DNA of 64,000 bases from Escherichia coli (GCF_003790525.1 NZ_CP033635.1); one strand, 5' to 3'. Positions 46,568-61,981 are shown, counted from the first letter of the stretch. Notes: generated by a model from the letters alone, not told the origin. Numbers and translations: made by a program.

Positions 46568-48073
46568 TTACTCCTGATTCACGCGATTAAGCTTGCCCAC
46601 AGCGGCAGCCATTAACACTTCCTGGGTGGCCTGCTCACGAGTAAATTCCCCGCTGAGATGCCCTTCATGCATGACGATGATGCGATCGCTCATGCCTAAT
46701 ACTTCTGGCATCTCCGATGACACCAGAATGATGCTCAAGCCATCGGCTTTGAACTGGTTAATCAGTTGATAGATCTCTTTTTTCGCGCCGACATCTACGC
46801 CACGGGTAGGCTCATCGAGGATCAACACTTTGGGGCGTGTCATCAGACCACGGGCAATCGCCACTTTTTGCTGATTGCCACCGGAGAGCAGACCAATTGC
46901 CTGTTCCATCGACGGCGTTTTCACATTAAACAGACGAATGAAATCACTTACTGCCTGCTGTTCATCGGCATGCTTCAAACTGCCGCCAGCGCGGCTGAAG
47001 TAGCGCAGCGCTGTCAGCGACATGTTCTCTTTTACTGACATGCCCAGCACTAAACCGTCACGTTTACGGTCTTCGGAGATATACACAATGCCGTTTGCCA
47101 GGCCATCCTGCGGTGAACGGGTAACGACTTCATGCCCATCCAGGGTGACGTAACCGCTGGTGCGCGGCAGTGCGCCGTAGAGCACTTTCATCAGTTCGGT
47201 ACGACCTGCGCCCATCAAACCAGAGACGCCAAGAATTTCGCCTTTGCGTAAAGTAAAAGAGACATCGTTAACGCCAGGTCCGCAGAGATTATCGACTTTC
47301 AGGCGGATATCTCCCGGCGCTTTGTCCAGGTGCGGATATTGATCTTCCAGCTTGCGACCCACCATCATCTCAATCAGCGAATCTTCGGTCAGTGATGCTA
47401 CTTCACGCTCAGCAATAAATTGCCCATCACGAAAAACGGTAACGTCATCGCAAATCTCGAAGATTTCTTTCATGCGGTGGGAGATATAGACAATACCGCG
47501 GCCTTGCGATTTCAGCTCGCGGATGACGCGGAACAAGGATTCGGTTTCGGTATCGGTCAGCGCATCGGTCGGTTCATCCATAATGATGACTTTCGACTCA
47601 AAGCTCAGCACTTTGGCAATTTCAACCATTTGCTGGTCACCGATGGAAAGATCGCCCACCAGCTTGTCGCTTTTAAAGCGCAGGTTAAGTTTAGCCAGCA
47701 ATTTATCCGCTTCGGCATACATGGTTTTCCAGTCAATTTTGCCAAAGCGATTAACAAACTCACGACCGAGGAAAATGTTTTCGGCAATGGTTAACTGCGG
47801 GATCAGGTTCAGTTCCTGGTGGATAATCCCAATCCCGGCTTCCTGGGAAGATTTCGGCCCGGTAAATGTCGTTTCTTTCCCCAGCCATAAAAGCGTGCCG
47901 GCATCGCGAGTATAGATACCAGTAAGCACTTTCATCATGGTGGATTTACCCGCGCCGTTTTCGCCCACCAGCGCCATCACGCGGCCCGGATAGACATTTA
48001 ACGCTGCGCCCGAGAGGGCTTTTACGCCCGGGAAGGCTTTATCGATGCCTTTAAGCTGAAGTAATGCTTCCAT
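46568..48073 (-). CDS. rbsA: Ribose ABC transporter ATP-binding protein (tandem ABC domains)
   Basis: 501 aa ORF with two Walker A motifs (GENGAGKST and GLMGAGRT). Confidence 0.95.
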
Positions 48074-48080
48074 GACGGCC

Positions 48081-48500
48081 TCAGAACGTCACGCCAGCAC
48101 AGAGAATGATATTCGCATACGGAGAACATTCTCCGCTGCGAATTACCGCCTGACTTTCTGCGGTTTGTTGTTTGAATTGTTCATGCGTGGTGTAACGAAT
48201 TTCAATGGTATTTCCCTGGTGTTTTTGCAGCTGCTCAAGGTGAGTGAGCAACGTTTCGTGGAGTTGCGGATTATGTTGTTTGATCTCTTCCGCGATAATG
48301 GCAGCTTCGACCTGCATTTCATTTGTGACGACGCCCAGCACCTGCATAAAAGAAGGTACCCCCTGGGTTAATGCCATATCGATACGCGTTGTACTTTTGG
48401 GGATGGGTAAACCAGCATCACACACCACCAGCGTATCGGTATGTCCCAGACGGGAGATCACCGATGAAATATCAGAATTAAGAACGGTGCCTTTTTTCAT
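48081..48500 (-). CDS. rbsD: D-ribose pyranase
   Basis: Track ORF trimmed to [20 protein letters not shown] (139 aa), with a GGAG Shine-Dalgarno 7 nt upstream. Confidence 0.93.
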
Positions 48501-48511
48501 TTTTTTCTCCA

Positions 48512-48531
48512 TCAGCGAAACGTTTCGCTGA
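48512..48531. promoter_or_regulatory. RbsR operator-like palindrome TCAGCGAAACGTTTCGCTGA in the rbsD leader
   Basis: Perfect 20-bp palindrome read from sequence just upstream of the rbsD start; consistent with a LacI-family operator. Confidence 0.75.
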
Positions 48532-48666
48532 CCCGCAGTTTAATCCTGACTGAGTTGGGAAAACCATCGTGACGTTACGGAAATGTGATCAACCTCGAAA
48601 CGTTTTACATGGTGATTAACCATGAAAACAAAAACGCCCCCTTATGGAGAAAGGAGGCGTCTGGCG

Positions 48667-50535
48667 TTAGATTTCGACCTGAGTACCCAGTTCGATAACC
48701 CTGTTTGGCGGGATTTCAAATTGATCCGGCGCACGCAGCGCATTACGTTGCAGCAGCAAGTACAGCTTGCCGCGCAGACGCAAATACCACGGGCGTTTGC
48801 CGAGGATCAACGACTCATGCGACATAAAGAAGGAGGTTTCCATCATCCGGCAACTTAATCCTTCCAGACCGCAGCGGTGGAAAACTTCTTCCACGTTTGG
48901 CGTTTCTCGCCAACCATAACTTGCCACCACGCGCCAGAAAGTGGGCGACAGTTGTTCAATCTGTACCCGACGGACGTTATGGACATATGGCGCGTCTTCG
49001 GTGCGCAGAGTTAACAGAATCACCCGCTCATGCAATACCTTGTTATGTTTCAGGTTATGCATCAGCGCAAAGGGAATGACGTTGATTGCACGCGACATAT
49101 ACACCGCGGTCCCAGGCACGCGAACGGGCGGTGATTTCTCCAGCGAAGCAATCATTGCTTCCAGAGAGTTACCATGTTCATGCATCCGCCGCAGCAAGCG
49201 GAAACGCTCGCTCTTCCAGGTGGTCATCACGATAAACATCACCGTACCGAGGCTTAATGGCAACCAGCCGCCGGAGAGCAGTTTATCGAGGTTAGCGGTG
49301 AACAAGGGAATATCGACACAAAGGAAAGCAATCAGGATCAGCGCAACAAAATACTTATTCCAGTGCCAGTTCTGACGTGCCACGGTAGTCGAGAGAATAG
49401 ACGTCAGCACCATGGTTCCGGTCACCGCAATCCCGTACGCCGCCGCCAGGTTGCTGGAGTGCTCAAAGCTGACAATCACAATCACGACCGCGACATAGAG
49501 CATCCAGTTCACAAAGGGAATATAGATTTGCCCTGACTCCATTTCGGAGGTGTGAATAATGCGCATCGGCGACAAATATCCCAGACGTACCGCCTGACGC
49601 GTCAATGAGAAGACGCCAGAGATAACCGCCTGCGAGGCAATTACCGTCGCCAGTGCGGCGATGATCAGCAGCGGGATCAGCGCCCAGTCCGGTGCCAACA
49701 GGAAGAACGGGTTCTTAATCGCTTCCGGATTCTTTAACAACAGCGCTCCCTGGCCGAAGTAATTAAGGGTTAAGGAAGGCAATACGACGGTGAACCACGC
49801 CAGACGAATAGGGAACTTACCAAAGTGCCCCATATCAGCATACAGCGCCTCGACCCCCGTAATCGACAGCACCACTGCCCCTAATGCAATAAAAGAAACC
49901 GTTTTGTATTCAAGGAAGAAATGCACCGCCCACATCGGATTCAGTGCATGCAGCACTTCCGGGTTAGCAATAATGCTACGTAACCCCAGCCCTGCCAGAA
50001 TCAAAAACCAGGTCAGCATGATCGGTGCAAACAGCTTACCGACCATAGCCGTGCCATGTTTTTGAATCATAAATAATAAAGTGAGAACGATAATTGAGAG
50101 GGGAACTATCCAGGTATCCAGCTGCGGGGCGACGATTTCCAGACCTTCAATGGCTGACATCACCGAAATAGCGGGTGTTATGACGACTTCACCATAGAAA
50201 AAGCTGCCGCCGATTAGCCCCATAATCACCAGCATTGATGTGGTTCGCGCCGACGTATTACGCCCGGCAAGCGACATCAACGTCAGGATCCCCCCTTCAC
50301 CGGCGTTATCTGCCCGCATCACGAAGGTGAGATATTTAATGGAAACCACAAAGATTAGCAGCCAGAAGATCAGCGATAAAAAGCCAAACACGGCATCGCG
50401 TTCAACGCCAAAACCAAACTGGCCGGACAAACATTCACGAAGTGTATATAACGGGCTGGTACCAATATCGCCGTAGACAACTCCAATCGCCGCGAGGGTA
50501 ATCGCGGGCAATGATTGCTTATTATCAGTGCTCAT
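48667..50535 (-). CDS. kup: Low-affinity K+ uptake transporter Kup (TrkD)
   Basis: 622 aa [33 protein letters not shown]. Confidence 0.95.
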
Positions 50536-50757
50536 AGACTAGTCTTTCGTTGAAATATGAAATGTGTGCTTAGTCCCTTGGCCCACAAAAAAGCGCACAG
50601 TATGCACGATTAACGGCAAAATCGTACTCCTAAATGCGGCCACATTAACCTGGCTCAAAGAAAAATACCCCCCCTTTGAGACTATTTTAGCCACCAGCAA
50701 GAAACGTCTATACTCGCAATTTACGCAGAACTTTTGACGAAAGGACGCCACTTCATT

Positions 50758-52254
50758 ATGGCTCACCCTCATTTATTAGCGGAAAGAATTTCCCGCCTGA
50801 GCAGTTCGTTGGAAAAGGGGCTTTATGAACGTAGCCACGCCATCCGCTTGTGTTTATTAGCGGCATTAAGTGGTGAAAGTGTGTTCCTCCTTGGCCCGCC
50901 AGGTATTGCCAAAAGTTTGATCGCCCGGCGCTTAAAATTCGCCTTTCAGAATGCCCGCGCGTTTGAATATCTGATGACTCGCTTCTCCACGCCGGAAGAG
51001 GTTTTTGGTCCCCTTTCTATTCAGGCGCTAAAAGATGAAGGGCGCTATGAACGTTTAACCAGCGGTTACCTGCCGGAAGCAGAAATCGTCTTTCTGGATG
51101 AGATCTGGAAAGCGGGTCCGGCAATTCTTAATACCCTGCTCACCGCCATTAACGAGCGCCAGTTCCGCAACGGTGCACACATAGAAAAAATCCCGATGCG
51201 CCTGCTGGTGGCGGCCTCCAACGAGCTGCCGGAAGCAGACAGCAGTCTGGAAGCGTTATATGACCGCATGCTGATTCGTCTGTGGTTAGATAAAGTGCAG
51301 GATAAAGCGAATTTCCGCTCCATGCTGACCAGTCAACAGGATGAAAACGACAATCCGGTTCCTACCTCCTTGCAGGTCACAGATGAAGAATATGAACGCT
51401 GGCAGAAAGAGATTGGTGAAATTACGCTGCCCGATCATGTATTTGAGCTGATTTTTATGCTGCGCCAGCAACTGGATAAATTACCGGATGCGCCTTATGT
51501 CTCGGATCGTCGCTGGAAAAAAGCGATTCGATTATTGCAGGCCAGCGCCTTTTTTAGCGGTCGCAGTGCTGTTGCCCCGGTTGATCTCATTTTGCTGAAA
51601 GATTGCCTGTGGTATGACGCGCAAAGCCTGAATTTGATACAACAACAAATCGATGTATTGATGACCGGTCATGCCTGGCAACAGCAAGGGATGTTGACCC
51701 GCCTGGGCGCGATTGTGCAACGTCACCTGCAACTACAGCAGCAACAAAGCGATAAAACAGCCTTAACGGTAATTCGTCTGGGCGGCATTTTCAGCCGTCG
51801 TCAGCAGTATCAACTCCCTGTTAACGTTACTGCTTCCACTCTGACTCTGCTGCTGCAAAAACCGTTAAAACTGCATGATATGGAAGTGGTTCATATCACC
51901 TTTGAGCGTAGCGCGCTGGAACAGTGGCTGAGCAAAGGTGGTGAAATTCGCGGCAAACTAAACGGTATCGGCTTTGCCCAGAAACTGAATCTGGAAGTTG
52001 ATAGCACCCAACATCTTGTTGTACGCGATGTAAGTTTACAAGGCAGTACGCTGGCACTTCCCGGTTCATCGGCTGAAGGTCTGCCAGGTGAAATAAAACA
52101 ACAACTGGAAGAGCTTGAAAGCGACTGGCGCAAGCAACACGCTTTATTCAGCGAACAGCAAAAATGTCTGTTTATCCCTGGCGACTGGTTAGGTCGCATT
52201 GAAGCCAGCCTACAGGATGTCGGTGCACAGATTCGCCAGGCGCAACAATGCTAA
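50758..52254 (+). CDS. ravA: MoxR-family AAA+ ATPase RavA
   Basis: Track ORF trimmed to [30 protein letters not shown] (498 aa); Walker A GPPGIAKS. Confidence 0.95.
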
Positions 52255-53699
52255 CGCTGGATACGCTTAATGTGATGCTGGCCGTCAGCGAAGAGGGATT
52301 GATCGAAGAGATGATCATCGCGCTGCTGGCCTCACCGCAGCTGGCGGTCTTCTTTGAAAAATTCCCACGACTGAAGGCGGCTATCACTGATGATGTTCCC
52401 CGCTGGCGTGAGGCGCTGCGCAGTCGGCTGAAAGATGCCCGAGTCCCGCCGGAACTCACCGAAGAGGTGATGTGCTATCAGCAAAGCCAGCTCCTCTCCA
52501 CGCCGCAGTTTATTGTGCAGCTACCACAGATCCTGGACTTACTGCATCGTCTGAATTCCCCATGGGCAGAACAAGCCCGACAGTTGGTTGATGCTAACAG
52601 CACGATCACTTCAGCGTTACACACGCTTTTTCTCCAGCGTTGGCGTTTAAGTCTGATCGTGCAAGCAACGACGTTAAATCAACAGCTATTAGAAGAAGAA
52701 CGCGAACAACTGTTGAGTGAAGTTCAGGAACGCATGACGCAGAGCGGACAACTTGAACCGATTCTCGCAGATAACAATACCGCAGCTGGTCGTCTGTGGG
52801 ATATGAGCGCCGGTCAGCTTAAACGTGGCGACTATCAGTTGATTGTGAAATACGGTGAATTTCTGAACGAACAGCCGGAACTGAAACGCCTGGCAGAACA
52901 GTTGGGGCGTTCCCGGGAAGCCAAATCAATACCGCGCAACGATGCGCAGATGGAAACCTTCCGCACCCTGGTGCGCGAACCGGCGACGGTTCCTGAGCAG
53001 GTTGATGGTCTGCAACAAAGCGATGATATTTTACGTCTCCTGCCGCCAGAACTGGCGACACTAGGGATAACAGAACTGGAGTATGAGTTTTACCGTCGGC
53101 TGGTGGAAAAACAGTTGCTCACCTATCGCCTGCACGGTGAGTCGTGGCGTGAAAAAGTGATCGAACGCCCGGTGGTGCATAAAGATTACGACGAACAGCC
53201 GCGCGGACCGTTTATTGTCTGTGTGGATACTTCCGGCTCAATGGGCGGCTTTAATGAACAGTGTGCGAAAGCGTTCTGCCTGGCCTTGATGCGCATTGCT
53301 CTCGCTGAAAACCGGCGCTGCTATATTATGCTATTTTCCACCGAGATCGTCCGTTATGAGCTTTCAGGCCCACAAGGCATCGAACAGGCAATCCGTTTTT
53401 TAAGCCAGCGTTTTCGTGGTGGTACTGATCTTGCCAGTTGTTTTCGCGCCATTATGGAACGATTGCAAAGCCGGGAATGGTTTGACGCCGATGCGGTGGT
53501 GATTTCTGATTTTATCGCCCAGCGGTTGCCTGACGACGTGACGAGTAAAGTGAAAGAGTTGCAGCGGGTACATCAGCATCGCTTTCATGCCGTGGCGATG
53601 TCGGCACATGGCAAACCCGGCATCATGCGCATTTTCGATCATATCTGGCGCTTTGATACCGGGATGCGAAGCCGCCTGCTCAGACGCTGGCGACGATAA
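52248..53699 (+). CDS. viaA: von Willebrand factor A-domain protein ViaA
   Basis: 483 aa ORF overlapping the ravA 3' end by 7 nt; C-terminal VWA domain (DTSGSM). Confidence 0.93.
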
Positions 53700-61447: not shown

Positions 61448-61981
61448 ATGTCTGAATTTATTACGGTAGCTCGCCCCTACGCCAAAGCAGCTTTTGACTT
61501 TGCCGTCGAACACCAAAGTGTAGAACGCTGGCAGGACATGCTGGCGTTTGCCGCCGAGGTAACCAAAAACGAACAAATGGCAGAGCTTCTCTCTGGCGCG
61601 CTTGCGCCAGAAACGCTCGCCGAGTCGTTTATCGCAGTTTGTGGTGAGCAACTGGACGAAAACGGTCAGAACCTGATTCGGGTAATGGCTGAAAATGGTC
61701 GTCTTAACGCGCTCCCGGATGTTCTGGAGCAGTTTATTCACCTGCGTGCCGTGAGTGAGGCTACCGCTGAGGTAGACGTCATTTCCGCTGCCGCGTTGAG
61801 TGAACAACAGCTCGCGAAAATTTCTGCTGCGATGGAAAAACGTCTGTCACGCAAAGTTAAGCTGAATTGCAAAATCGATAAGTCTGTAATGGCAGGCGTT
61901 ATCATCCGAGCGGGTGATATGGTCATTGATGGCAGCGTACGCGGTCGTCTTGAGCGCCTTGCAGACGTCTTGCAGTCTTAA
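61448..61981 (+). CDS. atpH: F0F1 ATP synthase subunit delta
   Basis: 177 aa [35 protein letters not shown]. Confidence 0.96.

Follow-up and report, generated by a model that had tools for sequence, protein, structure and literature searches.

The ten-base-pair palindrome that adjoins the kup start codon of Escherichia coli can be set beside four kinds of described element: the trp operator bound by TrpR (GNACTAGTTAACTAGTNC, two CTAG half-sites 8 bp apart), the met box bound by MetJ (at least two tandem copies of the 8-bp AGACGTCT), translation initiation regions with a weak or absent Shine–Dalgarno (SD) sequence, which offer an unstructured A/U-rich site, and leader helices that sequester a start codon. 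CTAG forms the core of trp operators, and AGAC and GTCT are the arms of met boxes. The kup palindrome has the same 6-bp ACTAGT core as the trp operator, with its rare CTAG, but it differs in carrying one CTAG only, without a second half-site 8 bp off, and the C and T of that CTAG are its least conserved bases. Both arms, AGAC and GTCT, match the met-box halves exactly, but a central TA divides the box, no tandem copy is present and the 16-bp tandem consensus has no match there within three mismatches. The locus is like initiation regions of weak or absent SD in the very short duplex that it forms with the anti-SD, in a leader that is less structured than shuffled sequences, in its A/U-rich flanks and in the conserved synonymous sites of its early codons; it is unlike them in that the conservation of two blocks, AAAGA and AGUCU, goes far beyond the needs of a landing pad that is simply unstructured. 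With start-codon-sequestering leader helices it shares a predicted 6–7 bp pairing of positions -7 to -1 with an upstream box in many Enterobacteriaceae, but the candidate helix is weak, broken in several lineages and without statistically robust covariation.

The window, that is the whole stretch of 64,000 nt of E. coli DNA that was analysed (NZ_CP033635.1), contains kup as a 622-aa ORF on the minus strand (48667–50535) and, divergent from it, ravA, which starts at 50758 on the plus strand. The ravA–kup intergenic region is 222 bp long, the same as in K-12 (3931094–3931315), and a 421-bp query across the site was 100% identical to many E. coli genomes, in which the neighbours are annotated as ravA and kup. 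The first-pass annotation of this DNA had reported a perfect 10-bp palindrome beside the kup ATG, within the range 50533–50550. The palindrome is real and its exact position is 50536–50545; the wider range contains it, but also spans the start codon (50533–50535) and five further bases of the leader. It occurs once in the window and cannot be extended because a T stands on both of its flanks. The SpeI site ACTAGT that had been reported inside it is present and is unique in the window. The features of the locus, all on the minus strand and with positions counted from the kup ATG where negative, are as follows.

50515–50532, minus strand: kup codons 2–7 (AGC ACT GAT AAT AAG CAA), with unusually conserved synonymous sites
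50533–50535, minus strand: kup start codon ATG (CAT on the plus strand), the annotated start of kup, K-12 position 3931316
50536–50545, minus strand: palindrome AGACTAGTCT, at -10 to -1 of the kup mRNA, adjoining the ATG and carrying the sole ACTAGT (SpeI) of the window
50536–50540, minus strand: AGTCT (-5 to -1), the right arm of the palindrome, nearly invariant in Enterobacteriaceae and not conserved beyond the family
50541–50542, minus strand: C at -7 and T at -6, the C and T of CTAG, which drift among C/T/A and T/G respectively (1.0–1.1 bit)
50543–50547, minus strand: purine block AAAGA (-12 to -8), which supplies the left arm of the palindrome with its last three bases, invariant in 78 Enterobacteriaceae
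50570–50576, minus strand: GGACUAA in the leader box CCAAGGGACUAAGCACAC (box 50563–50581), the candidate 5' strand of a pairing with 50536–50542
50587–50604, minus strand: predicted core of the proximal kup promoter, with the -10 element CATACT (50599–50604), the GC-rich discriminator GTGCGC and a T6 run at the start

As a class, palindromes of this length are no commoner than chance. The window holds 57 perfect 10-bp palindromes, a count at or below expectation, which is 62.5 under a uniform model and 73.7 ± 8.7 in dinucleotide-preserving shuffles; about 0.5 of them would be expected no more than 20 nt upstream of some gene start per window, a figure that uses a rough count of some 55 gene starts. 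The one statistically odd property of the kup palindrome is its CTAG core. CTAG depletion is well known in E. coli, and the 64 kb contain 22 CTAG tetramers against 50 expected under a Markov model or 249 under an iid model. Nine of these 22 cluster at 35500–39800, a region that includes the palindrome CCCCTAGGGG at 38349 and that, judged by its map position relative to kup, is presumably an rRNA operon.

Directed 5' RACE mapped kup transcription start sites (TSSs) that precede the ATG by 57, 135 and 213 nt (PMC2760140, Fig. 8A). The start at -57 corresponds to window position ~50592, the first base of the T6 run, 7 nt downstream of CATACT; since the 5' UTR is 57 nt long, the palindrome lies at about +48 to +57 of the transcript. 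The block GCATACTGTGCG, together with a run of four to six T (50587–50610, minus strand), is invariant in ~65 of 73 aligned Enterobacteriaceae leaders, the rest having one or two substitutions, and the same block and T-run occur in Yersinia, Serratia, Ewingella (with three T), Rouxiella, Hafnia, Pantoea and Mixta. Judged by its sequence, the block is consistent with a -10 element followed by a GC-rich discriminator and a start site in the T-run, and the strict conservation of this putative promoter core suggests regulation at initiation, which might take the form of a stringent-type discriminator, reiterative transcription in the T-run or salt sensitivity. By dRNA-seq, solely low-confidence class II forward TSSs were reported, further upstream of kup (PMC4681348). 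Two alternative -10 candidates derived from these class II TSSs, TACGAT and GTTAAT, were set aside in favour of CATACT on the grounds of its order-wide conservation and of the TSS at -57; they may represent minor upstream starts. No kup TSS was present in the Shigella, Salmonella and ROSE TSS tables. An intrinsic terminator or attenuator, proposed by a consensus scan at CGTGCATACTGTGCG followed by T6, was also rejected: the hit coincides in part with the -10 element and with the 5' RACE start site, and we therefore take it to be part of the promoter, outside the P1 transcript.

Elsewhere in the intergenic region, CTATACT (50708–50714, plus strand), which precedes the ravA ATG by ~45 nt and which other genera have conserved as GAGTATAGA, read on the kup strand, looks like a sigma-S-type -10 element for ravA; a class I reverse-strand TSS from dRNA-seq, at U00096.2 3929182–3929185 or about window 50689–50692, does not coincide with it. 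The kup leader of Salmonella, the C. freundii group, Intestinirhabdus and some Raoultella and Klebsiella contains a repeat of ~95–125 bp, depending on the lineage, which lies ~20 nt upstream of the kup ATG between CATAT and ATAAACGAAAG (locus L005, positions 1348–1482, in Salmonella, and loci L006, L008–L010, L016, L017, L019–L021, L024, L025, L052, L059, L070 and L077). The same repeat is dispersed between genes in E. coli, at a median of 5 places per genome, with 76–77% identity and a length of ~127 bp. These features fit an ERIC/IRU element.

The conservation of the palindrome was followed in a scan of one genome per species, in which the closest 80 kup loci listed all belonged to Enterobacteriaceae and one of them ended at a contig edge; per-position entropy was computed on 78 full-length Enterobacteriaceae loci, and symmetry was counted on 47 distinct leaders. 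Among the loci listed, AGACTAGTCT stands directly before the kup ATG in 33 of 80 species, its carriers being Escherichia, Enterobacter, Klebsiella, Raoultella, Leclercia, Lelliottia, Kluyvera and some Citrobacter. The last ten nucleotides read AGATTAGTCT in 19 of the 80 listed loci, AGACGAGTCT in 17, AGAAGAGTCT in three and AGATGAGTCT in two, and the remainder consists of five different single variants and the locus cut off at the contig end. Over the 78 loci, entropy is 0–0.17 bit in AAAGA (-12 to -8) and 0–0.27 bit in AGTCT (-5 to -1); between the two blocks it rises to 1.10 bit at -7 and 1.04 bit at -6, next to an average of 1.16 bit at third codon positions of kup. These two bases thus drift at the synonymous-site, or neutral, rate, while their mirror partners stay put (G at -4, 0 bit; A at -5, 0.27 bit). 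None of the five palindrome pairs is altered on both sides in the 47 distinct leaders, and shuffles score equally high. Position 4 of the palindrome changes from C to U in 17 of these 47 rows with its partner almost fixed, and the central pair 5/6 is broken in 12, nearly always by position 5.

Loci beyond the family were found by means of an approximate Yersinia-like protein, which served as a search probe only, and then through the loci of named Kup proteins. The taxa compared were Yersinia, Serratia, Ewingella, Rouxiella, Hafnia, Pantoea and Mixta, with Cronobacter as an in-family member, and ravA–kup synteny is retained in every one of them. The palindrome was found in none of the seven taxa outside Enterobacteriaceae; its equivalents, none of them palindromic, read AGATAACTCT in Pantoea, AGATGACATT in Mixta and GAAATCAATT in Yersinia. 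The AAAGA block, ~8–13 nt upstream of the ATG, is present in all seven and is the sole element of the initiation region retained there. Since AAAGA persists throughout the order and AGUCU throughout the family, and the dyad does not, symmetry is not what selection preserves. The first-pass annotation had proposed to discount the palindrome if it were not conserved outside close relatives. As it turns out, the exact 10-mer extends over many genera of Enterobacteriaceae, which goes against such a restriction, and is absent beyond the family, which agrees with it; from the alignments, its spread within Enterobacteriaceae is best read as a by-product of a conserved translation initiation region. 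In the same material, several public Kup calls are extended at the N terminus (P0001, 677 aa; P0002, 657 aa; P0143 and P0147, 630–633 aa), and for the Kup of Hafnia alvei (L085, positions 701–724) the called start precedes the conserved MSSEHK start by 8 codons. The extended calls are probably start-site miscalls, made where the sequence shortly before the true ATG holds no in-frame stop.

These patterns bear on the proposal that a dimeric DNA-binding protein, TrpR-like or MetJ-like, uses the palindrome as its operator and would form a roadblock near +50 of the kup transcript. The dyad symmetry is perfect, the arms are conserved family-wide and the elements shared with the trp operator and the met box are those described above, but we consider an operator highly improbable. 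The symmetric half-site conservation expected for a dimeric factor was not observed, as -7 and -6 drift neutrally at 1.0–1.1 bit opposite mirror positions -4 and -5 fixed at 0 and 0.27 bit, with no compensating change. Neither the 18-bp TrpR consensus nor the tandem met-box consensus matches at kup with up to three mismatches: the former is unmatched within three mismatches anywhere in the window, and the sole match of the latter in the window within three mismatches is at 61963. The palindrome contains the single CTAG within 2.5 kb, the nearest other one being at 53061, and it is missing in other Enterobacterales, whose promoter is nevertheless invariant. In addition, Kup/TrkD is described as constitutive (PMC2214971). 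The papers searched yielded no ChIP or footprint data for the site. The protein-binding site that the first-pass annotation had suggested is therefore not supported, given the lack of compensating changes and of any MetJ or TrpR consensus match.

The other functional suggestion made at that stage, a small regulatory hairpin in the initiation region, is refuted by folding. A 10-nt palindrome permits a stem of no more than 3 bp with a 4-nt loop, and the 22-nt RNA around it has a minimum free energy (MFE) of 0 kcal/mol, with all 200 shuffles folding at least equally well; the DNA form reaches -0.1 kcal/mol, not better than shuffles, and there are zero compensatory pairs. The leader from the mapped TSS together with 30 nt of coding sequence (87 nt) folds at -10.5 kcal/mol with z = +1.06, and is thus less structured than its shuffles.

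The absence of a strong SD, by contrast with the hairpin, was borne out. Within the 22 nt that precede the kup ATG, the most stable pairing with the 16S 3' tail is AAG:CUU, with 3 bp and -0.9 kcal/mol, against a median of -5.35 kcal/mol for 40 long ORFs in the window and of -2.9 kcal/mol for random 22-mers; rbsD and ravA reach -6.4 and -5.3 kcal/mol. This places kup in the weakest 12.5% of the 40 ORFs, with a duplex weaker than the random 22-mer median, and no run of at least four contiguous base pairs with the 16S 3' end (core GGAGG) was found 5–10 nt upstream of its start. The AAAGA block is a very weak SD-like element at best. Downstream of the ATG, third-position entropy in kup averages 0.65 bit over codons 2–10 versus 1.16 bit over codons 31–250, and codons 2–7 belong on this pattern to the same constrained initiation region. 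In this stretch (50515–50532, minus strand), GATAATAAGCAATCATT loosely resembles a Fur-box-like A/T repeat.

In our preferred explanation, which we hold to be probable, the palindrome is not a functional unit but an accidental dyad of two separately constrained blocks of the initiation region, at a kup start with almost no SD. The dyad would arise from AGA, the end of AAAGA (-12 to -8), being complementary to UCU, the end of AGUCU (-5 to -1), and the two presumably unconstrained bases between the blocks read CU in E. coli, which would complete the symmetry. The region would then be where ribosomes land on an mRNA that all but lacks a Shine–Dalgarno, A/U-rich and poorly structured from about -25 to +25 and lying 57 nt downstream of the proximal promoter. 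The conservation pattern, the absent folding, the weak SD and the published TSS enter this explanation as observations. Initiation at kup, we infer, relies on the open A/U-rich site instead of SD pairing and is inherently inefficient. TrkD is presented as a constitutive system with a low Vmax (PMC2214971), and kup mRNA has been measured at ~10^2 copies per ng RNA (PMC5434038); inefficient initiation at an open site would fit both the slow, constitutive TrkD/Kup of the former source and the mRNA level of the latter. Chance, which the first-pass annotation had also allowed for, is the reading that the palindrome counts, the conservation and the folding favour.

Two observations stand as counterpoints to the accidental dyad: AAAGA is invariant order-wide yet pairs poorly with the anti-SD, and the exact palindrome survives in many genera despite the general depletion of CTAG in E. 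coli. The constraint on AAAGA and AGUCU goes beyond what our explanation accounts for. As the near-invariance of AGUCU and the conserved codons 2–7 exceed the constraint of an open spacer, a specific RNA or protein partner is conceivable. The segment from -12 to +24 would in that case be the pairing site of a trans-acting sRNA or of an RNA-binding protein that controls kup translation, and the palindrome would merely lie inside it. The constraint does span AGUCU and the synonymous sites of codons 2–7, and the leader box carries an A(N)GGA motif (AGGGA), the kind of motif bound by CsrA. However, no kup chimeras are present among the rows listed in the supplementary tables of E. coli Hfq CLASH and RIL-seq studies; in the RIL-seq paper kup occurs only in two tables, apparently of protein and RNA abundance, with no chimera among the rows listed. 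Rfam gave no match at E ≤ 1 on either strand of window 48000–53000, and no partner was found. We regard control by such a partner as very unlikely.

A different role was considered for the central TAG of the palindrome, as the stop codon of an upstream ORF (uORF) in the kup frame (GUG GGC CAA ... GAC UAG in E. coli, 15 codons), so that ribosomes ending 3 nt before the AUG would re-initiate there, replacing the SD. The E. coli frame is indeed open from the GUG to the UAG at -6 to -4, and kup is without an SD, but the frame is not conserved among genera: Enterobacter and Klebsiella read another one (..FLWAKGLSTH..) because the length of the leader varies by 1–2 nt, and Buttiauxella, Kluyvera and several Citrobacter are without an in-frame start codon. 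The TAG itself is lost in at least 22 species (CGAG, TGAG, AGAG), and the putative GUG has no SD and lies ~7 nt from the mapped 5' end (PMC2760140). Termination–reinitiation was rejected on account of the frame shifts, the missing starts and the lost stop, and we judge it extremely improbable.

The leader box GGGCCAAGGGACUAAGCACAC (50563–50583, minus strand) is conserved across Enterobacteriaceae; it contains the A(N)GGA motif, and its GGACUA can pair with -6 to -1. A long-range helix is accordingly another candidate: the right half of the palindrome, (C/U)UAGUCU (-7 to -1), would pair with GGACUA(A/G) in CCAAGGGACUAAGCACAC, ~30 nt upstream, and partial occlusion of the start codon would keep or regulate Kup translation low, the palindrome still being incidental. 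Both strands are strongly conserved, and 86% of cells are paired versus 20–39% with the partner slid. Pair 33–66 is A-U in 16 rows and G-C in another 16, with a mismatch in the remaining 15, and the change from A to G in the box is confined on the tree to lineages with C at -7; the covariation score was reached by 0 of 500 shuffles, although this apparent covariation rests on few independent events and a shuffle control can be fooled by relatedness. The helix is present in both the MFE and the centroid structure of E. coli, Raoultella (7 bp) and Phytobacter (7 bp) (loci L034 and L065 for those other than E. coli), but it is absent from the fold of locus L018 and is not predicted by RNAalifold, and leader folding energies are no better than those of shuffles (z from -0.58 to +1.13). 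It contains an A.C mismatch in E. coli itself and a C.C mismatch in other Escherichia species, and uncompensated changes disrupt its core or its extension in Trabulsiella, the C. freundii group, Cronobacter and a Pluralibacter-like group (GGGAAAGC, GGGAATC). By our own estimate, the chance that some part of a 40-nt leader offers a 6-bp match, G-U pairs included, is ~10%, and both box and helix are missing in Yersiniaceae and Erwiniaceae. We therefore consider the pairing of the right half with the box unlikely as an account of the site, and it is quite doubtful, from the comparison of leaders, that AGUCU and the box GGGACUA form a family-specific long-range helix gating the SD-less kup start codon.

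On the preferred explanation of an accidental dyad, the kup initiation region is ordinary, if SD-poor, and the palindrome shows that a perfect dyad beside a start codon can arise by chance inside a conserved region. The analysis has, as by-products, provided a description of the kup initiation region, with almost no SD, an invariant AAAGA and a family-specific AGUCU, and has brought out the unusual conservation of the kup promoter and leader. If the long-range helix were true, the 57-nt kup leader would constitute a cis-acting element, so far undescribed, that controls the translation of a potassium transporter and possibly responds to ionic conditions, and it would act together with a promoter that is invariant order-wide and whose transcript starts in a T-run. 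A regulatory role of either the leader helix or the invariant promoter, if borne out, would be relevant to how a K+ transporter regarded as constitutive is held low.
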